A stretch of DNA of 64,000 nucleotides. Origin: an uncultured virus (IMG/VR IMGVR_UViG_3300044837_000188). Its lineage: Duplodnaviria > Heunggongvirae > Uroviricota > Caudoviricetes. The stretch lies in the IMG/VR virus record IMGVR_UViG_3300044837_000188. One strand, written 5' to 3'. This document shows positions 3,990 through 59,834 of this stretch, piece by piece (the first letter of the stretch is position 1; the number at the start of each line of letters is the position of its first letter). Under the pieces are notes generated by a model. The model did no database searches. It worked only from the letters and a program-made list of their open reading frames with translations, and was not told the DNA's origin. The position numbers and the translations under genes are program-made.

Positions 3990-6373
3990 GCCGCTGCCAC
4001 ATCCACCTGCCGATCATCAACAGCGCGGGCGACGTCTTCCCGTACGCCTCCGTCACCCTGCTGGACGGGGAGACCGGGGGCGCCCTGGGGGTGGACGTCT
4101 TCGCGCAGGCGGACGGCGGCAACCCGATCTCGTTCCCGCTCTTCACCGACCCGGCGGTCATCGACCTGTGGACCGACGTGGCGGTCCGGGTCCAGATCGT
4201 CGCCGAGGTCTCGGACAACACGCGGCTGGTCCTCTACGGGATCGACATCCTGCCCCCGGCGGACAACATCGTCACGAGCCCCATCCCGATCGGGATCACG
4301 GGAGCGGACGCGATCGAGTCCACCGCCGTGCTCATGTCGGCCGAGCTGGGGCACGCGGTCTTCCGTACGACAGACCCCGTGGGCACCCACGAGCACGAGG
4401 GCGACTCTGCGGGCTCCGTGGTGCTCACGGCCGAGCCCCCGACGGACTTCAACCCCTACCAGAGCTGGATCGGGTACCACGCGGGCGAAAACGCCTCTCC
4501 GTCCTCGATCGGCTCCTCGGCCGTCGGCGGTCACGCCACGGTGTATGGCGCCTCCTCCACGGTCATGGGGATCGCGGAGATCGTCCTCCACGCCTCCACG
4601 GGCGTCTCCGGCGACATGGCCGTGATGCTCTCCTCGGAGGACGGCACCGCGTCCGCAGGATCCGTTGTGGCGGGCCCGGGGAACGTAACGGCCCTGGGGC
4701 GCGACATGTCCGTCCTGGGCTCCCTGAACACCGCCACAGGCGTTGCCACGGGCTCGGTCCTGGTCGGCCCCGGCAGCACCGTGGGAGCCACCAACACCGT
4801 CAAGATCGGCTCTGCCCATACGACGGCCACCGGCGCCGGAAGCAACCAGGTCGTCGTCGGGATCGGCAACTCCGCCCAGAACAACCAGCTTCCCTGGGCC
4901 GCCGTCCAGAGCCCGATCGCGCTGGGCCAGAACATCTCCCTGGCCGGAGACCCCTCGAACGTGGCCAGCTCCGACGACTGGTTCGGGGGAGTGGGTCCGC
5001 TCGCCATGGGCAAGGACGACCTGACTTTCACGCCCTCGCTCATGCTGGTCCAGGGCAACGCGGTCACCCAGATGGCCCTGAGGGCCCAGGGCGACGTGGT
5101 GGCCAACGGCCAGCGGACCTACTCCAACGCGAGCACGACCCTGGGCTTCTTCGGGGCCGTCGGCGACGTGCGCAAGAAGGTCTCGTACGACCCGAACGAC
5201 TACCCCCACCAGCTCATCACGGACGTGATGCAGGCCCTCTCGAAGATCGGCCTGATCTACACCAACGACGTTCCGCAGGTGTACCAGGGCGGCCATCAGG
5301 CCGACGGAACGGCCATGGAGTTCGCCGAGACCGGCCAGGCCCTCCAGTGGAAGCTGCCGCCGACCTCCCCGGCCTACCGGCCGCTGAACGACTTCACGAT
5401 CGCCTCCAGCAAGATCGTCCTGAACGCGGCCAGGGGACCGTTCCCGACCCGGGGCGTTCCGGCGATCTACTCGGCCGCCCTCTCCGACGTGATCGTGCAG
5501 GGGCAGTTCGTCTACAACCCGACCGGCACGAACCTGGTGACCAACCCCGGCTTCGAGACGGACACCACGGGCTGGGCCACCTGGGACGGCTCCACGATCG
5601 CTCGGGTGACCACCAAGGCGAAGTACGGGGACGCCTGCCTCCAGATCACCCCCTCAGGCACCGGCTGGGCCGCCAGGACCATGTACAAGGTCGCGGTGAC
5701 CCCGGGGCAGGCGGTGAACGTCTCGGCGTACGTGAATCCGGACTCCGCCGTGAACTGCCGGATCAGCCTGGAGTGGATGAACTCGGGAGGTACCTACCTC
5801 ACCGGCGTGCCGATCTACACCAACGACCAGATGCTTCCGCTGAACGCCTGGACCCGGGTGAGCGCCTCCGCCACGGCGGCTCCGGCGGGAGCGGCGTTCG
5901 CCCTGCTCGTGGTGGGCTACTACGGCTCCGTGAACACCCCGTCCTCGGACAAGGTCTACATCGACTCCGCCCAGATCGTCGTGGGCTCCTCCGCCTTGCC
6001 CCCGTACGTCGACAGCACGGGCTACCACCCGGACGACGCCCACACGGGCCTGATGATCCGGTGCCTGCACGAGAAGTCCGTCGTGAGCGGCCAGACTATC
6101 GCGACCACGAAGGGGTATCTCGTCGGCCGCCGGAATGTGTACGCCGTGGCGGGGAATGCCATTACCTCCACGGTGGCCACCCACTCCACGCCGGTGGCCA
6201 CCGGCCAGATGCTCCAGGCCGACTGCTCCGGGACCTCGATCATCATCCGGGCGAACGGGACTCAGATCTCGACCTTCACGGACTCCACGTGGACCACCCG
6301 GGTCAAGTTCGGGTACCGCGTGTGCGAGTCGACCCAGGCCTCCGACTTCCTGGTCCTCCCCTTCGGATTCTGA
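3986..6373 (+). CDS. Tail fibre protein with degenerate YadA-like repeats and a CBM4/9-like carbohydrate-binding domain
   Basis: GTG overlaps previous stop (GTGA), GGAGG upstream; N-terminus RCHIHLPIIN..GDVFPY; motif NLVTNPGFETDTTGW typical of CBM4/9-like modules in tail proteins. Confidence 0.7.
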   Translation: MSRCHIHLPIINSAGDVFPYASVTLLDGETGGALGVDVFAQADGGNPISFPLFTDPAVIDLWTDVAVRVQIVAEVSDNTRLVLYGIDILPPADNIVTSPIPIGITGADAIESTAVLMSAELGHAVFRTTDPVGTHEHEGDSAGSVVLTAEPPTDFNPYQSWIGYHAGENASPSSIGSSAVGGHATVYGASSTVMGIAEIVLHASTGVSGDMAVMLSSEDGTASAGSVVAGPGNVTALGRDMSVLGSLNTATGVATGSVLVGPGSTVGATNTVKIGSAHTTATGAGSNQVVVGIGNSAQNNQLPWAAVQSPIALGQNISLAGDPSNVASSDDWFGGVGPLAMGKDDLTFTPSLMLVQGNAVTQMALRAQGDVVANGQRTYSNASTTLGFFGAVGDVRKKVSYDPNDYPHQLITDVMQALSKIGLIYTNDVPQVYQGGHQADGTAMEFAETGQALQWKLPPTSPAYRPLNDFTIASSKIVLNAARGPFPTRGVPAIYSAALSDVIVQGQFVYNPTGTNLVTNPGFETDTTGWATWDGSTIARVTTKAKYGDACLQITPSGTGWAARTMYKVAVTPGQAVNVSAYVNPDSAVNCRISLEWMNSGGTYLTGVPIYTNDQMLPLNAWTRVSASATAAPAGAAFALLVVGYYGSVNTPSSDKVYIDSAQIVVGSSALPPYVDSTGYHPDDAHTGLMIRCLHEKSVVSGQTIATTKGYLVGRRNVYAVAGNAITSTVATHSTPVATGQMLQADCSGTSIIIRANGTQISTFTDSTWTTRVKFGYRVCESTQASDFLVLPFGF

Positions 6374-6764: not shown

Positions 6765-8314
6765 CCGAGCCGCAGACCCTGGAAGCCCCCTCGGAATGGC
6801 CCGAGGGGGCTCTCTACTACTCCCCGAAGGGCCTGTACCCCTTCCAGACGGAGCACGTCGCCAGGGCGTACCTGAGCATGCTGGACGGTACCCAGGCGGA
6901 GTGGATGTTCTCCTGGGACACCGGCCTGGGGAAGTCCCACGCGGCCATGCAGATCGCGGCCCTGGCCTTCGAGGACCACACGGCGGACTTCGTCCTGCTC
7001 GTGTGCGAGAAGAACAAGCTCCAGGAGTGGAAAGCCGACTTCGAGCGGTTCACGAAGCTCATTGTCCGGATCCACCACGGCCCCTCGCGCAAGGTCAAGC
7101 TGGACCGCGAGGCCCTCCCGGACGTCCTGATCACGACGTACGAGACCGGCAAGGCCGACCTGGTGGCCGTGGACAAGTCCGGCCGCCGGAAAGTCCTGAA
7201 GGACGGCGGTCTGCTGGAGCGGGTGCGCCAGACGCACCCCATGGTGTTCTTCGACGAGGCCGACAAGCTCAGCAGCCGGACCTCGGCGACCTACAAGGCG
7301 TACGACCACTCGCTGAAGGCCCTGAGGAAGGTTTTTAAAAACCTGCCGACGATCATGATGACGGCGACTTCGATCCGGAAGGACTACGAGAACGCCTTCA
7401 ACCAGCTCCGGTTGCTGAGACCGCAGTCCATGCCGCTGGTCAAGGAGTTCGAGTCGTACTTCGTGCGGGGCCGGGACATCTACGGCAAGGCTCGCTACTG
7501 GGACCACCGGACCGAGGAATTCGCGGCGATCTGCCAGCCCCTCATGCTCTCGAAGTCCAAGACCGACCCCGACGTGATCGACCAGTTCCCCACAATGACC
7601 GAAGAGGCCCTCTGGGTGGAGCTGGATGCCGATCAGCGCAAGCTCTACGACCTCGTGGCGGAGTTCGACGGGGTGGGTGGTCAGCTCCAGGCCCTGCGGC
7701 AGATCTGCGCCAACCCGAAGGCCATCATCCACAGCGCCCAGGAGGGCTCCTCCAAGCTCGCGAAGGGTCTCCTAGAGGAATTGGGCCACGACTACCTCTT
7801 CGGGCTCTCCAGCGCGAAGACAGACGCTCTGGGGAGCTATCTGGAGCCGGTCGTCCTCGACCAGGGGGACAAGGCGATGGTCTTCACCTTCTTCGGCCCC
7901 TCGGTGATCCCGTGGCTAAAGATCGACCTCATGGAGCGGGGACTCAAGACCTTCACCCTGGAGGAGCTGGCGGACTTCAAGGCCCACCGTGGGGGAGCGG
8001 TCCTGATCTCCTCGGACGCTGGAGCCCGGGGGATCAACGTGCCCGAGGCCAGCTACCTCGTGGAGTACGACATGGCGGTCACGTACGGGCTCCGTACGCA
8101 GCGGCTGAACCGGGTCTCCCGGATCGGCTCCGGAGGGCCCTCGGTGACCGTACGGTCGATGCTCGCGCGCAGGACCGTGGAGGTCGGGCTGATGTTCTCG
8201 ATGCTCCGGGGGAACGTGCAGTCGGACGAGCTGCTCGGGCGCGGGGTCACTGGCGAGGAGTACATGTCGGCCTCGATGCGCAAGCAGATGCTCACCGAGG
8301 GGATGGACGAATGA
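6761..8314 (+). CDS. SNF2-family (SF2) helicase/ATPase
   Basis: LYPFQ, WDTGLGKS (motif I), FFDEADK (II), MTAT (III), SSDAGARGINV (V), QRLNRVSRIG (VI); ATGA overlap. Confidence 0.85.
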   Translation: MTEPQTLEAPSEWPEGALYYSPKGLYPFQTEHVARAYLSMLDGTQAEWMFSWDTGLGKSHAAMQIAALAFEDHTADFVLLVCEKNKLQEWKADFERFTKLIVRIHHGPSRKVKLDREALPDVLITTYETGKADLVAVDKSGRRKVLKDGGLLERVRQTHPMVFFDEADKLSSRTSATYKAYDHSLKALRKVFKNLPTIMMTATSIRKDYENAFNQLRLLRPQSMPLVKEFESYFVRGRDIYGKARYWDHRTEEFAAICQPLMLSKSKTDPDVIDQFPTMTEEALWVELDADQRKLYDLVAEFDGVGGQLQALRQICANPKAIIHSAQEGSSKLAKGLLEELGHDYLFGLSSAKTDALGSYLEPVVLDQGDKAMVFTFFGPSVIPWLKIDLMERGLKTFTLEELADFKAHRGGAVLISSDAGARGINVPEASYLVEYDMAVTYGLRTQRLNRVSRIGSGGPSVTVRSMLARRTVEVGLMFSMLRGNVQSDELLGRGVTGEEYMSASMRKQMLTEGMDE

Positions 8315-8589
8315 CCCCGCTGGAGGATCCTTCCTACGATCCGGTCCACAAGCCCGTACAGGGCCGTGTGCCGGACGTGGTGGAGCGCTGGGCGCCCGCG
8401 AGCCAGCTCCGGTGGTTCCGGCGCTTCTGGCCCGCCCTGGTGCGTCCTCAGCGCCTCTCGAAGTACTGGTGCACCTCGGAGCACCACATCGGTCCCTGCT
8501 GCATCTCCTGCGACAGTGAACTCCGGGACGGATTCGGCGTCCAGGTGGATGGCTGGTGCTGCTGCAAGGACGGCCGTCTGCTGGCTTGA
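8311..8589 (+). CDS. Small Cys-rich hypothetical protein
   Basis: ATGA coupling to helicase; CTSEHH..CCISC..WCCC. Confidence 0.55.
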   Translation: MTPLEDPSYDPVHKPVQGRVPDVVERWAPASQLRWFRRFWPALVRPQRLSKYWCTSEHHIGPCCISCDSELRDGFGVQVDGWCCCKDGRLLA

Positions 8590-8615
8590 CGCCCCAGCAT
8601 TCGTTGGAGTAGCGT
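8586..8615 (+). promoter_or_regulatory. Principal-sigma-type promoter with spacer palindrome
   Basis: TTGACG-N18-TAGCGT with CCAGCATTCGTTGG in the spacer; member of a family of ~14 copies. Confidence 0.75.
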
Positions 8616-8621
8616 TTACAA

Positions 8622-9278
8622 CGTCAACCCCTTCCGGGGCTGTACAGCAAGACTGGGTCTCCGTACGGAACTGGACAGGTCGAGTGCCACGCCCCAGCTC
8701 CTTGTATTCGTTCTCCTCCCGCTATCCCAAGCTCTGGAGAGCAACCCCTGAGGGCCCCCTCTGCGGCCCGATGGATGCACAACGGTCCCGGGCGGGGCCC
8801 AGAACCCCTCCCGGGACCACTGAAGACTTCGTACGTGATCAGGCCGTGACCTCTTTCCTGACGTCGTAGGAAACGGCCCCCTGCGGGGAAGCGCGGTTGC
8901 GTACGAGAGTGTGGCCGTCGACACTGATCGCTCGGCGAACCAGTAGGGACTCCCCCGTCTCTGTCGGCGGCCACACATGAAGCCCCGGCGGGCGTGATTC
9001 GTCCCTCCGGTAGGGGCAAGGCGGCAATGCAGGCCGCTGCGCCATACGGGCTATGTCCTCCCGTAGCCCCGGAAAAGGTCACAGGGAGAAACTCGGGTTA
9101 AGTCCCCGTGAGATGAACCGGTTGTGCCTCATGGCCGGTGGACTCCGGGGACGGGCAAGGGCCCGAGGGCCTTTCAGCGGGAAAAGCGTTCGCCCGTTCC
9201 CGAAATGAAGCACGAAGGCCCCCTCAGGGTCCGTCCAACTTGTGGAGGACGGGGTTTTGGCACCTGAGGGGGCCTTTT
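8622..9278 (+). ncRNA. Candidate large structured non-coding RNA (~650 nt)
   Basis: Own promoter and terminator, no credible ORF; helices 8784-8792/8810-8818, 8829-8840/8895-8906, 8909-8923/8962-8976, 9048-9055/9062-9069, 9102-9108/9146-9152, several with G-U pairs. Confidence 0.65.
9215..9278 (+). terminator. Intrinsic terminator-like stem closing the ncRNA
   Basis: AAGGCCCCCTCAGG (9215-9228) / CCTGAGGGGGCCTT (9263-9276) followed by TTCGT. Confidence 0.6.
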
Positions 9279-9305
9279 CGTATGTCCGTACATCCCCAGG
9301 ACACA

Positions 9306-9343
9306 GCAGAGCCCCCTCTGACGACGAATCGAGGGGGCTCTGC
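9306..9343 (-). terminator. Hairpin, probable terminator of the minus-strand island
   Basis: Perfect 13-bp stem GCAGAGCCCCCTC/GAGGGGGCTCTGC just past the antirepressor stop. Confidence 0.55.
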
Positions 9344-9406
9344 CTGACAAACACCCTGCTCACCGGAAGACCAGTGGACCGGATATTGACCCTGATCCTA
9401 TCAGGG

Positions 9407-10366
9407 TCAGCGACGCATCAGGGCCGTACGGACGCTGTGGATGTCCACGACCTCACCCTCCCCGGCGTGCTCCATGGCGGGCGGCAGGGTGCTCGGGGGA
9501 GTGGGCACACGGGCCCCGATGCCCAGGAGGTCCGGACGGCCCTCGTCGCGCATCCGCTGCTGGATCCACTCCAGGCCCTTGACGGTCACCCGGAGTTGGC
9601 TGTGGGCCTCCTTGAAGCCCCCGGACTCGTGGTCCGGCCGGGACCTCGGAGCGAGCCGCAGGTGGTCGCTGTGGGCCGCGTAGGGCACGTACTGGCCGTC
9701 CGCCTTGCGCTGGGCCATGCCCCGGTCCACGATCCAGTCGAACAGGCGCCGGGGACCGACCCGGTCCGAGATCGCCGCGTCCCGCTTGAGGATGTAGGCC
9801 GCCTCGCGGACCGAGTAGTCCTGGCCGGTGTCGGCGAGGGTCTGCCAGGCCTCCGCCGGGGGCTTCAGCTCGTCCCTCTCGGCCTCCGCCTGGGCCTGGA
9901 GGAGTTCGGCCTTCTCCCGGGCCTCCACCTCGTCCGCGTGGGCCCTGAGGGCCTGGGCGTAGGTCTGGGGGATGGCCAGGACCTGCTGCTCGATGACCTC
10001 CATCTGGCGCGTCTTGACGGCGAAGTAGTTCTGGGCCGCCGCGATGGCGGCCTTCTTCGGGTCCCCGTTCATGAAGACGAGGTAGCAGGCCCTGCGGGAC
10101 AGCCGGTAGTCGTGGCCCTGGGGGCGTCCACGACCACGTTCTCCCTGGTCAGAGGTTTTCGGTACGGCCACCGAAAAATGCCCACGGGTGTCCTCGCCCA
10201 GTCCTCGGAAGGCGGTCTGGGCCCGGTTGATCGCGTCGTTGAAGTTCCGCCAGTCGCGGTAGTCGACGATCGGCATCAGCTCGCGGGCCGACCAGTACTC
10301 GCCCTGGTCATCGACATGCCGGAGCCGCTCGAACTCGCTCTCGTACGCCTTGATCTCGCTCGTCAT
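9407..10366 (-). CDS. Phage antirepressor: DinD/BRO-like N-terminus plus ANT/KilAC C-terminus
   Basis: AGGAGAG RBS; YWSARELMPIVDYRDWRNF, DYRLSRRACYLVFMNGDPKK..AQNYFA; PQTYAQALR..YSVREAA..RLFDW. Confidence 0.85.
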   Translation of the reverse strand: MTSEIKAYESEFERLRHVDDQGEYWSARELMPIVDYRDWRNFNDAINRAQTAFRGLGEDTRGHFSVAVPKTSDQGERGRGRPQGHDYRLSRRACYLVFMNGDPKKAAIAAAQNYFAVKTRQMEVIEQQVLAIPQTYAQALRAHADEVEAREKAELLQAQAEAERDELKPPAEAWQTLADTGQDYSVREAAYILKRDAAISDRVGPRRLFDWIVDRGMAQRKADGQYVPYAAHSDHLRLAPRSRPDHESGGFKEAHSQLRVTVKGLEWIQQRMRDEGRPDLLGIGARVPTPPSTLPPAMEHAGEGEVVDIHSVRTALMRR

Positions 10367-11366: not shown

Positions 11367-11477
11367 GTGAATATGGGCCTGTCTGTCGTTGGTAGCGAGG
11401 CGGGTCCGAACGTCGGGGCTGGCAGGCCCTAGGCGTTCAACACATGACGATCGTACCTCGCGAAGGGTCGGTCGCAA

Positions 11478-11513
11478 GAGGGGCCCCAGGGAAACCTGGG
11501 GCCCCTCGTTTTT
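11478..11513 (+). terminator. Intrinsic terminator
   Basis: GAGGGGCCCCAGG-GAAA-CCTGGGGCCCCTC then GTTTTT. Confidence 0.7.
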
Positions 11514-11526
11514 AAAATCCTAAGGG

Positions 11527-16314: not shown

Positions 16315-16472
16315 CGCAGCGCACCTGGTTTGCGCCGTTTATGGATGCGGCGAGAGAAGAGTTGCCGGAAGCTGACGAGAATGAGGTGGCGAAGCTGGCT
16401 CTGAGAAAACTCGGAGAGGCGTTTAAGGAAGCTGCCGCAGAACTCGGCTCGGATGAAGAGTATGGAGGATAA
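16311..16472 (+). CDS. Small acidic hypothetical protein (53 aa, below ORF-track cutoff)
   Basis: GTGA overlap; MTQRTWFAPFMDAAREELPE...; low-GC codons like the adjacent endonuclease. Confidence 0.45.
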   Translation: MTQRTWFAPFMDAAREELPEADENEVAKLALRKLGEAFKEAAAELGSDEEYGG

Positions 16473-16944
16473 GACCTGCATCGGCTGTGGAGAAGTCAAG
16501 CCGCTGAAGGACTTTCCTATTGCTCGTCAGTATAAGGATGGGCATCTTGGTCGGTGCTTCATCTGTCGCAATAAGCAGCGGCGAGATAGCCGAGCGAGGA
16601 ACACTGAGTCCCAGAGGACGACTGAGCGGGCGAGGTACGAGCGCACGAAAGAGCAGGTGCGCTCGTACAACCGTAGGCGGACATATGGAGTGACTCAGGA
16701 ACAGTTTGATCAGATGGTGGAGAACCAGAACGGACTTTGCCTGATATGCGGCAAGCCTCCTTCGGGTAAAGGTAAGAGCGCAATTCTCCATGTGGATCAC
16801 TGTCATGACACCGGGAAGGTCCGTGGCCTTCTCTGCACCAATTGCAATTGCGGGATTGGCTTCTTCAAGGACGATCCTGAATTGGTGAAGAAGGCATTGG
16901 CTTATCTTGAGGATGGTGGTTCTAGTGACGTTGCTCCTGATTGA
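16453..16944 (+). CDS. Endonuclease VII-family (HNH-type) probable homing endonuclease
   Basis: KTCIGCGEVKPL..F, CFIC, YGVT..QNGLCLICG, LHVDHCHDTGKVRGLLCTNCN; AT-richer than neighbours. Confidence 0.88.
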   Translation: MKSMEDKTCIGCGEVKPLKDFPIARQYKDGHLGRCFICRNKQRRDSRARNTESQRTTERARYERTKEQVRSYNRRRTYGVTQEQFDQMVENQNGLCLICGKPPSGKGKSAILHVDHCHDTGKVRGLLCTNCNCGIGFFKDDPELVKKALAYLEDGGSSDVAPD

Positions 16945-37080: not shown

Positions 37081-39150
37081 ATGGCCGCACCCACGGCAGT
37101 CCGGTCCAAGCCTCGGCCGTCACTGCTGCCCAAGAGCTTCGGTCCTGACAAGCTCTTCCAGCTCTTCACCGGTCTGCCGGTACCCGACCCGATCACCTTC
37201 GTGATGTCGCCGGACTACCTGGACCGGCCGAACATGTACCCGCGACAGGCCACGCTGCTGAAGATCATTTTCCTGCGGCACGACCTGCTGACGCCGTACG
37301 ACCACGCGGTGATCGACGAGTGGGAACAGAGCTTCTCCGAGACCGGGAACAACGGCATCGTGCCCGGGGTGCGGGAGCGCATGGTCCAGCTCCGCGAGGA
37401 GGGCCGGAAGTGGTTCCGGGAGACCCTCCTCGTGATGGGCCGCCGTGCGGGCAAGGGGCACATCTCCGGCCTGTCCATGACCTACGTCCTGTGGAACTAC
37501 ATGGCCAAGGGCGACCCCCAGAAGTTCTACGGGGTCGACCGGGACAAGAAGCTCCAGGCCATGGTCTTCGCCGGGAAGCGGGATCAGGCCAAGGCCACGG
37601 TGTGGCAGGACGCGGTGAACTACATCACCGGTGCGGCCTGCTTCGCTCCGTACATCCGCGCGCCTCTCCAGGCGGAGAAGCTCTCGGTGTACGCGCCGAA
37701 CGACTTCCTCCGCATGAGGAAGCGCGCGGAGCAGGGGATGAACCCCGAGGACATCAACATGGCCACCTTCGAGATCGTCCCGAAGGAGTCCACCCTGATG
37801 GCCGGACGAGGGCCGACCTCGTTCATGCAGGCGTACGACGAGATGGCCCACGTGGTCGCCTCAGGCGCCAACAGGTCGGCCGAGGAGGTCTACGGGGCTG
37901 CTACTCCGTCCCTGGACCAGTTCGGCTTCGACGGCTTCATCATCGAGCCCTCCAGCCCCTGGCAGATGCTCGGGCAGTTCTATGTGAACTACCAGAACGC
38001 GCTGCTGGTGGACGAGGAGGGCGAGCCGGTCTACCCCGAGATGCTGATGATCCAGCTCGCGAGCTGGGACATCTACAAGGACTGGGAGATCGCCCACACG
38101 ATCGACGTCTTCCCTGAGGGGTACCAGGGCGACCTGGGGGAGTACATCGACCGTCCTCCGCCGAAGTTCGATTCCCTCCGGGGAGCCATCCAGGCGTACG
38201 ACGACCAGATGGCCCGCCTGGAGCAGTCCAACCCGGAGACCTTCAAGGTCGAGCGCCGGAGCCACTTCGCCGTGGCCATGGACGCCTACCTCAACGAACA
38301 GAAGGTCAAGGAGATCTTCCACCCCTGGCACGCCCGCCAGGAGTTCTACGGGTCGCCGGAGCTGGGGATGCAGATCCGGGGCCGACTCGACATGGACTAC
38401 AAGGCCCACGGTGACCCCTCGAAGTCCAACGCGAACTTCGGTCTGGCCTGTGCTCACGCCGAGGTGGGGCCGGACAACCGGCTGCACGTGGTCTTCGACA
38501 AGATCTACCACTTCCAGCCCGGCGACTTCTCGGACCACATCATCGACTACGACCTGGTGGAGGAGTGGATCTGGGACAACATCATGGCGCCGTTCATGCC
38601 GACCGAGATGACCTTCGACCAGTTCAACTCGGCCCAGGTCATCCAGCGCCTCGCCAAGCGCTCTCGGCAGGCCCAGCTCCCCAAGGTCACCCAGGTCTAC
38701 GAGAAGACCGCGACCAAGCAGCACAACTGGACGCGGGCCGAGATCTTCAAGACCGCCGTGAACATGGGATGGGTCCACGCGCCGTACTACGAGCAGGCCG
38801 AGCTGGAGCTGAGGTTCCTCCAGGAGAAGAACGGCGTGGTCGACCACCCCGAGTCCGGACCGGTCCAGACGAAGGACGTCGCCGACGCGATGATGGAGTG
38901 CGTCATGTCCCTGATCGGGGACCAGATCATCTCCATGCGGGCAGAGCTGGGATCGATGCGGCCCCAGGGCGCCATGCAGAGCGGCATCCACCCGTTCCCG
39001 AACATGTCCCGGGGCAGTGAGTTCTCCGGCGGACCCCGCACTGACCAGGACGTATTCCGTCAGCTCGGGGGATTCGGCCGGGCCCGTGGAGCCCGTGCCG
39101 ACACCTTCCACGAGAGCGCCCGTTCCCGTGGGCGGCGTAATCGCATGTGA
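37081..39150 (+). CDS. terL: Terminase large subunit
   Basis: YPRQ, LVMGRRAGKG (Walker A), AYDEMAH (Walker B), SSP, nuclease HGDPS..FDQFNS..KDVADA. Confidence 0.85.
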   Translation: MAAPTAVRSKPRPSLLPKSFGPDKLFQLFTGLPVPDPITFVMSPDYLDRPNMYPRQATLLKIIFLRHDLLTPYDHAVIDEWEQSFSETGNNGIVPGVRERMVQLREEGRKWFRETLLVMGRRAGKGHISGLSMTYVLWNYMAKGDPQKFYGVDRDKKLQAMVFAGKRDQAKATVWQDAVNYITGAACFAPYIRAPLQAEKLSVYAPNDFLRMRKRAEQGMNPEDINMATFEIVPKESTLMAGRGPTSFMQAYDEMAHVVASGANRSAEEVYGAATPSLDQFGFDGFIIEPSSPWQMLGQFYVNYQNALLVDEEGEPVYPEMLMIQLASWDIYKDWEIAHTIDVFPEGYQGDLGEYIDRPPPKFDSLRGAIQAYDDQMARLEQSNPETFKVERRSHFAVAMDAYLNEQKVKEIFHPWHARQEFYGSPELGMQIRGRLDMDYKAHGDPSKSNANFGLACAHAEVGPDNRLHVVFDKIYHFQPGDFSDHIIDYDLVEEWIWDNIMAPFMPTEMTFDQFNSAQVIQRLAKRSRQAQLPKVTQVYEKTATKQHNWTRAEIFKTAVNMGWVHAPYYEQAELELRFLQEKNGVVDHPESGPVQTKDVADAMMECVMSLIGDQIISMRAELGSMRPQGAMQSGIHPFPNMSRGSEFSGGPRTDQDVFRQLGGFGRARGARADTFHESARSRGRRNRM

Positions 39151-39276
39151 CGGGTCTTGCCGAAGCACTTGCGATCATGTAATCCTTGGGATATCTCCGC
39201 ATCGCGGACACACGGTGACAAGCCCTTACGGGCCTCTTGAGTCGGATCTCTGGCGGGATCTCGCTTCACTGTGCTG

Positions 39277-39304
39277 GAAGGCCCCCGTTCACCCGGGGGC
39301 CTTC
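39277..39304. terminator. Terminator-like hairpin
   Basis: GAAGGCCCCCG-TTCACC-CGGGGGCCTTC. Confidence 0.5.
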
Positions 39305-39349
39305 TGCTGTCCCAGGACCCTGAACGGGCACGAAGGGGTGGAGGTGGCC

Positions 39350-42300
39350 ATGTCCAAGACCCTGACCGAGCTGTTCACCACGGCGGCCGAGCACTCGCCC
39401 GAGTGGATCGCCGAGTGGGGCGGTGGACCGTCCAAGCCGTGCCCCTGTTGCAAGGGCACCGGCGAGCACGACGAGGGCGAGTGCCAGCTCTGCGACGGCG
39501 GGATGACCGTGAGCGCCAAGACCCCCGAGGACGCCAAGGGCCGCGACTGCTTCCGGACGGCATCTCAGGAGGGCTCCGTACGGATGGCGGCCCCGGAGGA
39601 GTACCGGAAGTTCCACTACCCGGACTACCCGCAGGTGAAGGGTGGCCTGGGTGGCCTGGTGCGGCACTTCAAGAAGACCGACCCCGACTACTACGACAAG
39701 GTCAAGAACGACGTTCAGTCGAACGGCATCAAGACCCCGATCCTGGTCAAGTACAAGGACCCTCGCGGCAATGACCTGAAGCGGCCCCAGGTGATGGAAG
39801 GCCACCACCGTGCCGCCGTGGCGCACGAGCTGGGGATCCACCTGCCCGTCGGCGACTACGACAACGAGCACGACTTCGGCCGGTCCCGTGCGGGTAACGC
39901 CGACTGGTTCCAGAACAACCAGCGGACCCCGAAGGGGATCTCCTGGGAGGCCTCCCGCAAGACGGCTCTGCCGGGCGAGGAAAGCCAGCACACCCCGGGC
40001 CCCGTCGGTCTGCCGGACGAGAAGTCTTACACGCACGACCAGGGTGTCCACCGGGGCGTCTCGATCGTTCTCTCGCCGGAGAAGCACAAGTTCGTCCACG
40101 ATCCCGCTCAGCCCGCACCGGCCAAGGCTCACCTGCTGCTCTCTGAGTTGAGGAAGCAGAACGCCAAGAACGAGGGCCCCGAGGGCGAGGAGGGGTCCAC
40201 CGGCGGCCTGGGGAACTACTGGAGCCCCTCGCCGGACAAGGGCGCGGAGTACGCGGCCCAGGGCGGTTTCAAGGCGTACCACGACCACGAGCGGGCCCAT
40301 AACTGCGGCGACGAGGACACGGGCCACGGCGGATGCCCCACGACCCAGGTCGTTGTGCACGCCGACACCCCGCCGGAGAAGAACCACTGGCACGAGCGCT
40401 TCCGCCAGGGCGAGAAGTACGACCCCGCGATCTCCTGGCGTCTGCCTGTGCGCCCCGGGGCCAAGATGAACGTCCAGGGCGTCTCCTGGCGCGAAGGCAA
40501 CGACCACAAGTCCTCGGACGAGAAGTACAGCGAGGAGGGGATGCAGCACCACACCAAGACCCCCTTCAGCCGGTACGACTTCGCGGCCCCCGTGCACAAG
40601 GAGGCCGGGGTGAGCTTCGGCCCCGGCGGCAAGATGGGCGAGGACAGCTATGAGGAGGGCGACGGCTACAGCAAGGGGCGCTGGGACGAATGGCACCCCA
40701 AGCTCCAGCCGGAGATCCACCGGCACATGGCCCTGGACCTCCCCGCGAGCCACCCGGCGCACAACGACAAGCTGCCCCTGGAGGAGCGCGCTCGCTCCGT
40801 GCTCCAGGACACTCTGACCAAGGGCAACGTCGGCGTGCACTGGACGGACGACCAGAACTACAAGCACCTCACCGGCCCCCGCCTGGAGGCCGGTCAGACC
40901 CCGGTGATCCTGCACGCCAAGACGCCGCCCCGGGACCACGTCGAGGACAACGACTACGTCCTGGAGGACCGCGCTGTACGGGACTGGGACACCGAGGAGC
41001 GGGAGGTCCCGCTCAAGCGCAACGCGCCCGTGCACGTCACCGGCATCACCTGGCACACCCCCAGGGGCGGCGCCGTCCGGCACAACTTTGAGCAGCCCTT
41101 CCGTGTTCACGCGGCGCTGAAGGACCCGGACGAGGTGGAGTGCAACCAGGGCCACACCCACTGGGGGCAGCGCGGGGCGGCCGGTCTCCTGGTGCGCCAC
41201 ACGGACCTGGAGGGAACTCACCACTACCTCCTCCAGCAGCGCTCGAAGCAGGTCGACCACCCCGGTACGTGGTCGACCCCGGGCGGTGCCATCGAGCAGG
41301 GCGAGAGCCCGTTCGCGGCCGGTACCAGGGAGGGCACGGAGGAACTGGGGGACCTGCCTCCGCTGGGACACGTCGGCACGCACTCCAACGACCACGGCGG
41401 CTGGTCGTACCACACCGTGATCGCCGACAGCCCGACCAAGTTCACCCCCGACGGCGAGGGGTCGCACGCGCACGAGACGGCCGGACACGGCTGGTTCACC
41501 GCGCCGCAGATCGACGGCATGGGGGAGTCCGGCGAGCTGCACCCCGGCTTCGCCGAGTCCTGGCCCGAGGTCCGTCACCGCGCGGAGACCGAGGTCCCGC
41601 ACCAGCAGATGCGCCTGTTCGCCTCCAGCAAGCACGCACCGGCGGGAACCTTCGGGAAGGACAACGAGGGTCACCGCGTCCAGATGACCCCGATGGACGG
41701 GTGGGCCCACGACGACGGCTCCCACGGCCACGAGGACAACACGAACATCGGGGACCACCCGGTCTACACCGACACGCACACTTGGCTGCCGTCCGGCCGG
41801 TACTGGGGTCCCAATAGCGCTCAGAACGACCAGCGGCTGTTCGAGGGCGACCACCTGCGCCCGGAGATCCGCAGTGACGTCCTGGACCGCGTGGGAGGCG
41901 TTCTGCGGCCCCACTACAAGGACTGGGCCAAGTGGGCCAAGGTCTACTTCGCCGGGTCGGAGGCGGCCCGCTGGCAGCCTTTCAACGGGGATTTCGACAT
42001 CCTGATCGGGATCGACTGGTCTGCGTTCCACAAGGCCAATCCCGACTGGGAGGAGTACCCGGACGCCGGGATCGCGGCGGGCATGACGGACCACTTCTGG
42101 ATGGAGCCCGGCGGCAACGTCAAGGACTACTGGTTCACCCTCCAGGACGGCCGCAAGGTGGGGCCCTTCGACCGAACCTTCTTCGTGAACCCGAAGGCCT
42201 GGGACATCAGGGAGCTGCACCCGTACGCGGCCTACAACGTCACGGACGACGACTGGGCCGTGCACCCCCTGGAGGTCCCCGCCGACTGGGACGCCACCCA

Positions 42301-43102
42301 CCTGCCGGAGTCCTACTGGACGTACGCGGAGTCCCTGCTCCACGAGATCCGCGCGATCGGTCAGCTCCCCGAGGAGGAGCGCCACCGCATGGCGTCCAAC
42401 CTCTGGGACCAGATCCACACCCACCGCTCCGACGCCTTCACCGACGGCGGCAAGGGCCTCTTCGACCTGTCCAACGTCGTGGAGAAGTACCTCGACCAGC
42501 ACCCGGACAAGCCCTGGGCCCAGCTCACCCAGTGGAAGAACGAGGCGCCGGACCAGCCGATGGCCCCGGTCCGCGCGACCCTCAGCGGCCTCTTCTCGGA
42601 GGGAGCGGCCAAGGGCGCCGACGGCAGCGGCATCATGATCGCGATCGTGCCGCCAGAGAAGGTGGGCAAGAAGCTCCTCGTGGAGGACGGAGAGCCCCTG
42701 GAGGCCCTCCACATGACCCTGTGCTACCTCGGGAGCCGTAAGGAGCACCCGAAGGGCAAGGTGGAGTCCCTGCCGTCCCTGGTGCGCGCCTGGGCCCGTA
42801 CGCAGAAGCCCTTCGAGGCGAACATCGGGGGAGCGGGCACCTTCACCAACCCGGGGAGCCACGTCCTGTGGGCCGCCGTGGACATCCCCGGCGGAGGGGA
42901 GATCCGGCAGAGCCTGAGCGACCTCCTGGAGGAGCACGGGTACAAGGTCCGCAATGACCACGGCTGGACTCCGCACATCACGCTGAAGTACCACAACAGC
43001 CATGTGCGGTTCCTGCCCAAGGTCGAGTCTGCGACCTGGAAGGTCGGGGAGGTCATGCTCTGCATCGGGGGCGACTGGGAGCCGATCGAACTCGGGGCTT
43101 GA
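39350..43102 (+). CDS. Polyvalent multi-enzyme protein: Zn finger, ParB/Srx, two ART-like domains, NUDIX, nucleotidyltransferase, 2H phosphoesterase
   Basis: GGAGG plus ATG 39350; CPCCKGTG; GIKTPILV..EGHHR; VHRG/IHRH..W[ST]..HA.TP..ExEV; GGAIEQGESPFAAGTREGTEELG; FAGS..GDFDIL; HMTL and HITL. Confidence 0.8.
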   Translation: MSKTLTELFTTAAEHSPEWIAEWGGGPSKPCPCCKGTGEHDEGECQLCDGGMTVSAKTPEDAKGRDCFRTASQEGSVRMAAPEEYRKFHYPDYPQVKGGLGGLVRHFKKTDPDYYDKVKNDVQSNGIKTPILVKYKDPRGNDLKRPQVMEGHHRAAVAHELGIHLPVGDYDNEHDFGRSRAGNADWFQNNQRTPKGISWEASRKTALPGEESQHTPGPVGLPDEKSYTHDQGVHRGVSIVLSPEKHKFVHDPAQPAPAKAHLLLSELRKQNAKNEGPEGEEGSTGGLGNYWSPSPDKGAEYAAQGGFKAYHDHERAHNCGDEDTGHGGCPTTQVVVHADTPPEKNHWHERFRQGEKYDPAISWRLPVRPGAKMNVQGVSWREGNDHKSSDEKYSEEGMQHHTKTPFSRYDFAAPVHKEAGVSFGPGGKMGEDSYEEGDGYSKGRWDEWHPKLQPEIHRHMALDLPASHPAHNDKLPLEERARSVLQDTLTKGNVGVHWTDDQNYKHLTGPRLEAGQTPVILHAKTPPRDHVEDNDYVLEDRAVRDWDTEEREVPLKRNAPVHVTGITWHTPRGGAVRHNFEQPFRVHAALKDPDEVECNQGHTHWGQRGAAGLLVRHTDLEGTHHYLLQQRSKQVDHPGTWSTPGGAIEQGESPFAAGTREGTEELGDLPPLGHVGTHSNDHGGWSYHTVIADSPTKFTPDGEGSHAHETAGHGWFTAPQIDGMGESGELHPGFAESWPEVRHRAETEVPHQQMRLFASSKHAPAGTFGKDNEGHRVQMTPMDGWAHDDGSHGHEDNTNIGDHPVYTDTHTWLPSGRYWGPNSAQNDQRLFEGDHLRPEIRSDVLDRVGGVLRPHYKDWAKWAKVYFAGSEAARWQPFNGDFDILIGIDWSAFHKANPDWEEYPDAGIAAGMTDHFWMEPGGNVKDYWFTLQDGRKVGPFDRTFFVNPKAWDIRELHPYAAYNVTDDDWAVHPLEVPADWDATHLPESYWTYAESLLHEIRAIGQLPEEERHRMASNLWDQIHTHRSDAFTDGGKGLFDLSNVVEKYLDQHPDKPWAQLTQWKNEAPDQPMAPVRATLSGLFSEGAAKGADGSGIMIAIVPPEKVGKKLLVEDGEPLEALHMTLCYLGSRKEHPKGKVESLPSLVRAWARTQKPFEANIGGAGTFTNPGSHVLWAAVDIPGGGEIRQSLSDLLEEHGYKVRNDHGWTPHITLKYHNSHVRFLPKVESATWKVGEVMLCIGGDWEPIELGA

Positions 43103-45243: not shown

Positions 45244-45308
45244 TTGCCTCTCCAATGATCCTTGGAGTAACCTTGACATCGTCAAGGCGACACCGACTCC
45301 TCAGGAGG
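45244..45308 (+). promoter_or_regulatory. Full promoter cassette
   Basis: TTGCCT-N18-TAACCT with CCAATGATCCTTGG; CCTTGACATCGTCAAGG; GACTCCTCAGGAGG. Confidence 0.72.
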
Positions 45309-58788: not shown

Positions 58789-59151
58789 GTGTTCGACCTG
58801 AACTCGTACGAGAAGAACATCGCTCAGTTCTCGTTCCCCTTCATCAACACGGAGCATGAATACCGGGACATCAAGGTGGTCCGGCGGGGACGGCTCAGCG
58901 ACGACTCCTGGGCGATCGTGGACGAGCCCTGGTGTTACCAGCCCAGGGGCCGCAGGTGGGCCTACGAGCGGCTCCCGAGCAGCCGGACGGACAAGTTCCT
59001 GAAGGCTTCCCGGATGCCGCTCGCCGAGGCCCTCCCGCTGGCCGAGAAGCTCGCCAGGAGCAAGGCCCGCCAGTGGGAGAAGCGCCTTGTCCGGATGATC
59101 GCCCGCCAGGAGGCCGTAGCCGCTGCGAAGGCCAAGGAGGCCAGCGAGTGA
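58789..59151 (+). CDS. Hypothetical protein
   Basis: GGAG RBS plus GTG. Confidence 0.6.
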   Translation: MFDLNSYEKNIAQFSFPFINTEHEYRDIKVVRRGRLSDDSWAIVDEPWCYQPRGRRWAYERLPSSRTDKFLKASRMPLAEALPLAEKLARSKARQWEKRLVRMIARQEAVAAAKAKEASE

Positions 59152-59834
59152 ACGAAGTGCTGTTGAAGGGGATCGTGGGGAGCACCGCCTACGGTCTCGC
59201 CCATGAGGGGTCCGACGTGGATTACCTGGGCGTGTTCGCGGCTCCCACGCGAGAGGTTCTTGGTCTGCATCCCGGCAAGGAGTCGGTGGTCCACAAGGAC
59301 CCGGACACGACCCTCCACGAGGCGAAGAAGTTCGTCCAGCTCGTCCTGAACGGCAACCCCTCGGTCTCCGAGCTGCTGTGGCTGGACACCTACGAGCAGC
59401 GCACGTACCTGGGCGCCCATCTGGTCGAAATCCGCAAGGCGTTCCTGTCGGCCCCGCGTGTGCGGGATGCCTACATGGGCTACGCCACGTCCCAGTTCGG
59501 CCGCCTGATCGCGCGGGGAGACGGATCCTTCTCCGCCGACACCAGGAAGCGCACCGAGAAGCACGCGCGGCACCTGGTGCGACTGGTGGAGCAGGGCTTC
59601 CACCTGTACATCTCGGGTGAACTACTGGTGAACGTGACCGGCTTCCTGGAGCCCGAGTGGGTCTTCCAGATGGGCCGCAACATCGCCGACGACCCCAAGA
59701 GGGGCGCCGAGTACATGGTGAATGCCCAGCAGAAGTTCGATGGCGCGCGGAGCTGTCTGCCGGGGTATCCCGACGAGGAGCCCGTCGAGAAGTGGCTCAT
59801 GGAGGTCCGGGAGAAGTACTGGACCGCGAAGTAA
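59148..59834 (+). CDS. Pol-beta-superfamily nucleotidyltransferase (YcgL/RlaP-like)
   Basis: IVGSTAYGL..SDVDYLGVF, HE..KF..L..GNP..ELLW, KHARHLVRL. Confidence 0.82.
   Translation: MNEVLLKGIVGSTAYGLAHEGSDVDYLGVFAAPTREVLGLHPGKESVVHKDPDTTLHEAKKFVQLVLNGNPSVSELLWLDTYEQRTYLGAHLVEIRKAFLSAPRVRDAYMGYATSQFGRLIARGDGSFSADTRKRTEKHARHLVRLVEQGFHLYISGELLVNVTGFLEPEWVFQMGRNIADDPKRGAEYMVNAQQKFDGARSCLPGYPDEEPVEKWLMEVREKYWTAK

Follow-up and report, generated by a model that had tools for sequence, protein, structure and literature searches.

A probable new family of structured non-coding RNAs of about 650 nt in a clade of soil actinobacterial phages

The large, ornate RNAs known from bacteria and phages are few, and GOLLD, ROOL, OLE and raiA are still without functions, although RNA-only cages of GOLLD and ROOL have recently been shown by cryo-EM. 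ROOL is known from rumen samples and Firmicutes. YrlA, a non-coding RNA (ncRNA) containing a tRNA-mimicking module, joins this module to the rest of the RNA via the anticodon-stem side. The cryo-EM report describes GOLLD and ROOL as phage RNAs near tRNA islands, with a variable linker that is located within the cage and sometimes carries tRNAs (10.1101/2024.12.08.627333). In a mycobacterial tRNA cluster, a GOLLD gene that itself contains a pseudo-tRNA has been reported (PMC6582537). Here we describe a locus in a 64,000-nucleotide stretch of DNA (the window) from an uncultured virus (IMG/VR record IMGVR_UViG_3300044837_000188), for which an earlier note, made from the sequence alone, had proposed a large structured plus-strand ncRNA of a new class with its own promoter and terminator. 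Four relatives and the negative Rfam searches support this core reading. The locus is very probably a genuine gene for a structured plus-strand RNA, and it likely encodes an RNA of about 650 nt that belongs to a new, rare family in a clade of soil actinobacterial phages of about 150 kb.

The layout of the predicted RNA is like that of GOLLD and ROOL. GOLLD is likewise a large structured phage RNA with no known function, in which conserved domains surround a variable linker that can hold a tRNA or tRNA-like element (10.1101/2024.12.08.627333; PMC6582537), and ROOL (about 580 nt, compared with about 650 nt here) is likewise phage-borne, with many helices and a disordered or variable middle linker. 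The trait of conserved domains around a variable linker is found here too, as a resemblance of layout only, and three of the five known versions of the RNA carry a tRNA-like element in the middle. However, the conserved blocks differ from those of GOLLD, and both the 5′ and the 3′ domains are conserved here. Whereas GOLLD and ROOL are associated with tRNA islands, the 64-kb window contains no tRNA gene, and a complete 156-kb relative contains one (tRNA-Met), which is about 76 kb away from the RNA. Unlike ROOL, the RNA comes from soil phage contigs with 66% GC and is not matched by the ROOL model.

The search with Rfam covariance models, which the earlier note had proposed, was run with Rfam 15. 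Nothing relevant was found in 8400–9600 at E values up to 10, where the best match was a small RNA model over the terminator hairpins (22.7 bits), and the four homolog loci gave no match at E values up to 1. The GOLLD model (RF02032, gathering threshold 150 bits) had no match at E values up to 10 in 8400–9600 and the four related viral records. The ROOL model (RF03087, gathering threshold 99.1 bits) had no match at E values up to 10 either in 8400–9600 or on the four related records, where the search was weak and the controls stayed silent too. The YrlA model (RF02553) had no match in 8400–9600 or the four homolog loci, and ARAGORN detected no tRNA or tmRNA in the window or in the relatives L007, L008, L019 and L015 described below, and the Rfam models for tRNA and tmRNA had no match either. 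The Rfam and ARAGORN results agree with the statement of the earlier note that the region has no hallmark of tmRNA, RNase P or introns and falls into no known class. The layout is alike and no sequence or structure profile is detectably shared; the RNA is assigned to a likely new family of the same broad kind rather than to GOLLD or ROOL.

Using the neighbouring helicase and antirepressor as queries led to four IMG/VR contigs, and the invariant 18-nt block of the RNA led to a fifth. After de-duplication, there were four other distinct versions: L015, L007 (the same as L017), L019 and L008 (the same as L052 and L094). The identity of the RNA to the window copy is 88% for L015 and 0.57, 0.54 and 0.52 for L007, L019 and L008. 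All of the relatives are soil viral contigs with the same gene order, in which a single RNA copy per record lies between an SNF2 helicase gene and a convergent antirepressor gene, and L007 lies within a 155,979-base record rated 100% complete (G300). The third-codon identity of the helicase is 0.77 for the contig of L007 (L003) and 0.67 for the contig of L008 (L002), and the RNA sequence outside the invariant blocks drifts faster than the synonymous sites of this neighbouring gene.

The RNA lies in 8590–9406, within the phage replication module. A filter based on codon-position GC initially left two bigger gaps, which hold long open reading frames (ORFs) matching the metallophosphoesterase, endonuclease VII and TerD families. 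Because these two gaps contain real genes, 8590–9406 is the largest non-coding stretch in the window, as the earlier note had described it. A coding reading of this stretch was rejected. The GC content at third codon positions is 0.59–0.67 for all the ORFs crossing the RNA region, compared with 0.84–0.90 in the flanking genes; 11 of the 12 insertions or deletions relative to the closest relative L015 are not multiples of 3; and the longest open frame differs in strand and frame across the five homologs.

The predicted RNA covers 8621..9279 on the plus strand (about 650–660 nt) between a promoter and a terminator, and both of its ends are predicted. The promoter (8586..8615, plus strand) consists of a -35 element TTGACG (8586–8591), which overlaps the stop codon of an upstream ORF, a conserved 18-nt spacer and a -10 element TAGCGT (8610–8615). 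Actinobacterial housekeeping promoters of the sigma-70 type have a -35 element TTGACN, a spacer of 16–18 nt and a -10 element TAnnnT, and TTGACG-N18-TAGCGT conforms to this consensus at the sequence level. All five homologs have a TTGnnn-N17/18-TAnnnT site whose spacer core is GCATTCGTTGGAGTA or close to it, and the promoter motif has 11 matches in the window with up to three mismatches, compared with 0.43 expected from 100 shuffles. The consensus promoter that the earlier note had placed at the start is upheld as a predicted promoter. Seven copies of the motif are on the plus strand (8586, 45244, 50103, 51076, 53944, 55703 and 56353) and are alike in the -35 element, the spacer, the -10 element and the first transcribed bases. 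Those at 45244, 50103, 53944 and 56353 are followed within 60 nt by an AGGAGG-type ribosome-binding site and an ATG, and the copy at 8586 leads into the structured region without either. The consensus of this promoter family is TTGACG, a CCCCAGGAATCCTTGGAG-like spacer, a TAGnCTT -10 element and a conserved start region gACnnCGTCAAgg, and a phage regulator may act at the conserved spacer. A generic E. coli-type promoter scan had no match at the locus because the -10 element TAGCGT fits TATAAT at only three of six positions.

The RNA ends in a long hairpin (9215..9279, plus strand) with a perfect 14-bp stem (9215–9228/9263–9276) followed by TTTT (9275–9278). The inner stem shows three pair types at two positions, and the apical loop AACTYGTGG (9237–9246) is among the conserved blocks. 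From its sequence, this hairpin is a probable intrinsic terminator, which bears out the terminator of the earlier note, and the U-tract follows it in the window, L015 and L007. A generic terminator scan with a loop limit of 3–8 found none at the locus because the loop of the terminal hairpin is longer than this limit. A pairing of the terminal loop with an ACAAC block was considered and rejected, as it fits four of the five sequences and fails in L015; the loop is better explained as a predicted purine-rich internal loop with a UYGU apex.

The region could instead be a cis-acting untranslated region, either the 3′ untranslated or processing region of the upstream operon or a buffer for convergent transcription that controls the antirepressor. 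This is improbable. The RNA does sit between a plus-strand operon and the convergent antirepressor gene, and the stretch separating it from this gene contains an inverted repeat and two hairpins, as such a function would suggest. However, it has its own promoter of the phage family, and L015 keeps both promoter and RNA though it is without the 92-aa ORF that precedes them in the window. Some 130 nt separate the end of the RNA from the antirepressor stop codon, so that RNA and gene do not overlap, and its invariant blocks and covarying helices extend over 650 nt, far beyond the needs of a terminator.

The folding energy of the plus strand is -322.6 kcal/mol, compared with -285.2 ± 7.4 kcal/mol for 20 dinucleotide shuffles (z = -5.1). 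For the 3′ domain, RNAalifold predicted 54 pairs, 16 of which are changed on both sides. Because refitting to R1, a covariance model built on the 3′ domain that scores 106–192 bits on the five sequences, left misalignments by MAFFT in the relatives unrepaired, helices were curated by coordinates. In nine such helices, picked and trimmed by hand so that the paired share and the ratio of G-U to A-C are inflated, 204 of the 205 cells (41 pair columns in five sequences) are standard pairs and 17 columns are changed on both sides. With slid partners, 70–112 of the 205 cells were paired and 1–4 columns were changed on both sides, and none of 1000 permutations reached the observed values. It is very unlikely that the stretch is a non-functional spacer with a structure that comes from GC-rich composition and shared ancestry. 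High-GC DNA folds stably by chance, and kinship among five related sequences can mimic covariation; yet the region is about five standard deviations more stable than dinucleotide shuffles, changes on both sides are concentrated in helices, the invariant blocks stand in a background that drifts faster than synonymous sites, and the gap is at the same place in all the relatives.

In the untrimmed helix lists, there are 21 G-U cells and 3 A-C cells, and the 12-bp helix in the middle of the RNA adds three G-U pairs. This supports the argument of the earlier note that the imperfect pairs are G-U on the plus strand and point to a plus-strand RNA. Whole-length pairwise tests on raw minimum-energy folds are weak and do not tell the strands apart (for the plus strand, 6 changes on both sides, compared with 1–3 for slid partners). 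The T-arm of the tRNA-like domain in the relatives can be read on the plus strand only. The plus strand is therefore taken as the RNA strand because of the G-U excess, the promoter, the U-tract and the orientation of the T-loop.

The same evidence bears on the reading that the element acts as DNA, be it an origin of replication, a site of recombination or attachment, or several palindromes bound by proteins. This reading is slightly less probable than a cis-acting untranslated region. Phage attachment sites commonly overlap tRNA genes, and a tRNA-like piece is present in three relatives. The locus lies among replication genes (SNF2 and DinG-like helicases, DnaB, DnaC, primase and Pol III alpha), has many inverted repeats, and folds equally well on the minus strand. 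An origin and an attachment site were nevertheless rejected, as there is no AT-rich stretch (GC 0.66–0.68) and no iterons, the short repeats having two to three copies with irregular spacing. The excess of G-U over A-C (21 to 3) is not favoured by DNA hairpins or palindromes, the tRNA-like piece has both acceptor strands and not the 3′ half alone, there is no adjacent integrase, and the promoter and U-tract give the element a direction.

The predicted 5′ domain of the RNA begins with H1 (8628..8639, plus strand, as are all the features of the RNA below), a hairpin CCCC-UUCC-GGGG. The same hairpin is present in L007 and a different GC hairpin is at the same place in L008; in L019 the equivalent is not clear. 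H2 (8653..8697) has a stem 8653–8657/8693–8697 that encloses an inner 4-bp helix and the 18-nt block GGACAGGTCGAGYGCCAC (8673–8690). The block is invariant in all five sequences, and its single variable base, U or C, changes together with a base further upstream that is A or G (A-U in two, G-C in two and A-C in one). H2 also shows three pair types at one position. The next unit (8776..8818) is a conserved TGCACAACGG-like block (8776–8785) followed by H3, a 35-nt hairpin of constant length in the five sequences with 13 predicted pairs, four of which are changed on both sides. The helix 8784–8792/8810–8818 of the earlier note lies here and extends to 14 nt (8784–8797/8805–8818).

The H6 hairpin CCGGCGGG / CCCUCCGG (8985..9010) precedes the predicted 3′ domain; all five sequences can form a hairpin here, and their sequences differ. 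It is followed by a three-way junction (9013..9070) of Pa (9013–9017/9066–9070), H7 (9021–9025/9033–9037) and H8 (9045–9050/9060–9065), with an invariant CCTCCCG (9057–9063) inside. Three sequences have GGGGC/GCCCC as Pa and the other two GCAGC/GCUGC, so that two positions are compensated, and H8 shows three to four pair types at three positions. A helix 9048–9055/9062–9069 proposed earlier can form 8 bp in the window but fails in L019 and L008, whereas H8 and Pa hold in all five sequences. The junction is followed by an invariant single-stranded block of the GGAAAAGG type (9071..9078).

H10 (9102–9108/9146–9152) and H11 (9118–9121/9135–9138) are arranged around an internal loop (9102..9152). 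The 7-bp H10 had been noticed earlier; its sequence differs across all the lineages and its pairing is kept in every one. The 3′ side of the internal loop lies within the invariant GGTGGACTCC (9137–9146), and the 5′ side exists in two versions, one shared by the window, L019 and L008 and the other by L015 and L007. The window segment from H10 to H12 (9102–9175) resembles the type of the distant L019 and L008, while the 88%-identical L015 carries the L007 type, so the gene is a mosaic. In sequence terms, this segment suggests recombination or module exchange inside the RNA gene. The last unit before the terminal hairpin (9157..9207) includes H12 (9157–9163/9168–9174), H13 (9177–9181/9193–9197) and the invariant CCCGAAATG (9199–9207). 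The variants of the H13 stem are GCGGG/CCCGU, CUGGG/CCCGG, CGGGG/CCCCG and GGAGG/CCUCU.

The long-range complements on which the earlier note had based its proposal of pseudoknots or alternative folds (8846/9071, 8777/9121 and 8717/9176) exist in the window but are not conserved. All three were rejected as pairings, since each has one partner in a segment that relatives lack or replace. Two further candidates were rejected: a 15-nt complement between the 5′ hairpin and 9065–9079, which is lost in L008, and kissing dimers of the palindromic H7 loops, which are present in only three of the five sequences. No conserved pseudoknot was found among the five sequences, in which two candidates each fail in one sequence, and this part of the earlier proposal is not supported.

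Between the two domains lies a variable middle. In the window and L015, its first part (8829..8906) forms a three-way junction, the closing helix of which has 12 bp, three of them G-U (8829–8840/8895–8906), and its second part (8909..8976) is a 15-bp helix (8909–8923/8962–8976) enclosing small hairpins, to which L007 has an analogous helix. Both helices had been described earlier and are present as such. The 15-bp helix is 93% complementary as DNA with one G-T, and relative to L015 it shows four changes on both sides and one change from U-G to C-G. In L007, L019 and L008, the first part is replaced by a tRNA-like cloverleaf with a 7-bp acceptor stem, a 5-bp T-stem, a 7-nt T-loop (UUCGAAU or UGCGAAU) and a discriminator A. 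The acceptor stem covaries (GCGGGAC/GUCCCGC and GCAGGAC/GUCCUGC). This domain has neither a normal anticodon arm nor an encoded CCA, and the Rfam tRNA model did not match it at E values up to 1. In its acceptor and T-arm it is like known embedded tRNA-like modules for processing or mimicry, except that in the window and L015 an unrelated junction takes its place. Judged from these sequences, the middle of the RNA is replaceable between lineages.

A tRNA-mimicking module within a larger ncRNA is also a feature of YrlA, and the same phage clade carries a Ro60/TROVE gene and two YrlA-like elements. In G300, the Ro60/TROVE ORF is at L420:6429–8147 (68.7 bits), with the YrlA-like elements directly upstream (L420:5849–5914 and 6282–6349; 37.7 and 36.3 bits, below the gathering threshold of 69). 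By their sequences, these look like a phage-borne Ro60 and Y RNA module. The RNA described here is at 132.5 kb of G300, about 85 kb from the TROVE gene and not adjacent to it. A role as the Ro60 partner was rejected, because YrlA-like RNAs already adjoin the TROVE gene. In contrast to YrlA, the window copy has no tRNA-like module, there is no D-arm of the YrlA type, and the YrlA model does not match.

These comparisons also bear on the alternative that the RNA is a very divergent member, missed by the models, of GOLLD, ROOL, Y RNA/YrlA, tmRNA or RNase P RNA. There is only a small chance of this, about the same as for a cis-acting untranslated region. The layout like that of GOLLD and ROOL, the tRNA-like element and the Ro60/TROVE protein encoded by the complete relative would fit it, as would the occurrence of GOLLD and ROOL in phages and of tRNAs in some GOLLD linkers, as reported (10.1101/2024.12.08.627333; PMC6582537). 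However, the searches with Rfam, GOLLD, ROOL (a weak search) and ARAGORN are all without a match, and the Ro60 gene of G300 has two YrlA-like elements of its own, about 85 kb from the RNA. Moreover, the tRNA-like domain is attached to the rest of the RNA via its acceptor stem, compared with the anticodon-stem side in YrlA. A separate, new family is the likelier assignment.

The family is rare in the collections that can be searched, as judged from sequence matches. Five motif patterns over IMG/VR gave the same four relatives or identical copies, and otherwise chance matches, among the matches listed. With one motif pattern each, metagenome contigs (94 stretches) and 185,579 species genomes (75 stretches) gave only known relatives, identical copies or chance matches. 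The flanking DNA was examined for 80 loci each in two of the IMG/VR motif scans and in the metagenome scan. In 151 genomes from the same genus as G001 (a Streptomyces), the R1 model gave two partial matches (24 and 22 bits), read as chance; in 151 genomes from the class of G001 it gave none. A full-text literature search turned up no account of an RNA of this kind from actinobacterial phages. Soil metagenome runs of several studies hold low-depth fragments near-identical to the window, and the contigs assembled from the reads of four soil DNA runs were all short, of low depth and near-identical to the window, with zero new variants among them.

Several points weigh against a plus-strand RNA gene of a new family. 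The blastn search against 50,697 GenBank phage records gave no match to the window or the RNA. Because the family was not found in GenBank phages or in the genomes of the genus and class, it could be an oddity specific to one clade. The sequencing-run search found no RNA run containing the RNA stretch, and hence no transcript was seen. In L019 and L008, the terminal hairpin is not followed by a U-tract. Folding of the minus strand is no less stable than that of the plus strand (z = -5.5, 20 shuffles), and because both strands fold stably, energy alone cannot assign the strand; the raw-fold test gave 5 changes on both sides for the minus strand, compared with 0–3 for slid partners, so that it does not separate the strands. 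Besides the inflation that comes from picking and trimming the curated helices, the five sequences represent about three independent lineages, which makes the figures supportive rather than a formal test. Covariation among homologs, which the earlier note had named as a check, is seen as compensating changes in the helices, and with only five sequences an R-scape-type test is without power. The mode of action proposed below is drawn from analogy only. With these points weighed, a structured plus-strand RNA gene is still considered highly probable, and its assignment to a new family likely.

The window has 66% GC throughout and reads as part of a large phage genome; the RNA region (0.66–0.68) is the same as elsewhere. 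Proteins with YadA-head repeats and a carbohydrate-binding domain are encoded upstream of the RNA. The replication module around and downstream of it includes genes for the SNF2 helicase, a DinG-like helicase, a metallophosphoesterase, a 5′-3′ exonuclease, a DnaC-like loader, a DnaB-like helicase, a primase, a Pol III alpha polymerase, a RecA/UvsX-like recombinase and a resolvase, and a weak terminase match is found further downstream. The RNA locus itself is between the plus-strand operon and the convergent antirepressor gene. Directly upstream, a cysteine-rich ORF of 92 aa (8311–8589, plus strand) is missing in L001/L015, where the RNA promoter comes immediately after the helicase gene. Downstream, a perfect 13-bp hairpin outside the RNA (9306..9343, no strand assigned) lies between the RNA and the antirepressor gene and may be the terminator of the latter, and a perfect 10-bp inverted repeat TGACCCTGAT/ATCAGGGTCA (9387–9409) overlaps the antirepressor stop codon and may be an operator.

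Two other observations concern this part of the window. A low-GC island at 16405–16941 (plus strand; 0.58 compared with 0.66) holds an endonuclease VII gene without the phage codon bias, probably a nuclease of the homing type that was acquired recently. An Rfam match to BjrC68, a small RNA of Bradyrhizobiaceae, at 11438–11514 (plus strand; 39.6 bits, gathering threshold 39) sits in the divergent intergenic region between a 343-aa ORF and the DinG-like helicase gene and may be chance or a small structured element.

As a mode of action, we tentatively propose a scaffold with a variable insert, by analogy with GOLLD and ROOL. The RNA would be made by the host RNA polymerase together with the protein genes of the promoter family. 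Its two conserved domains would fold into a compact core, and the RNA would be stable and act in trans. Tertiary contacts or surfaces for binding would be provided by the invariant single-stranded blocks. Like the linkers of GOLLD and ROOL, the variable middle would be an insert that is tolerated or a cargo that is carried.

A more specific and rather doubtful version, again by analogy, would make it a third RNA of the GOLLD/ROOL kind, a self-assembling RNA-only scaffold or cage formed from the two domains. The middle would be its cargo (a tRNA mimic in three relatives), and it would act alongside Ro60 and YrlA-like RNAs, RlaP and 2H/LigT proteins in a conflict with the host over tRNA or RNA damage. 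The window encodes an RlaP-family RNA-repair nucleotidyltransferase at 58860–59831 (plus strand; Pfam PF10127, 65.5 bits) and, at 38915–43099 (plus strand), a 1395-aa ORF with NUDIX and 2H/LigT phosphoesterase domains, which is of the RNA-repair type like RlaP. A role in an RNA-centred conflict is conceivable; the Ro60, RlaP and 2H/LigT genes are 30–85 kb away from the RNA and have no direct link to it.

The family has only five known copies, comes from a rare phage clade and is absent from the searched Rfam library. Its five natural variants, the two alternatives for its middle module and the two versions of one internal loop make it a compact test case for such RNAs. If a family unrelated to GOLLD and ROOL shares their layout, then conserved domains around a variable linker would be a recurring design and not a quirk of two families.

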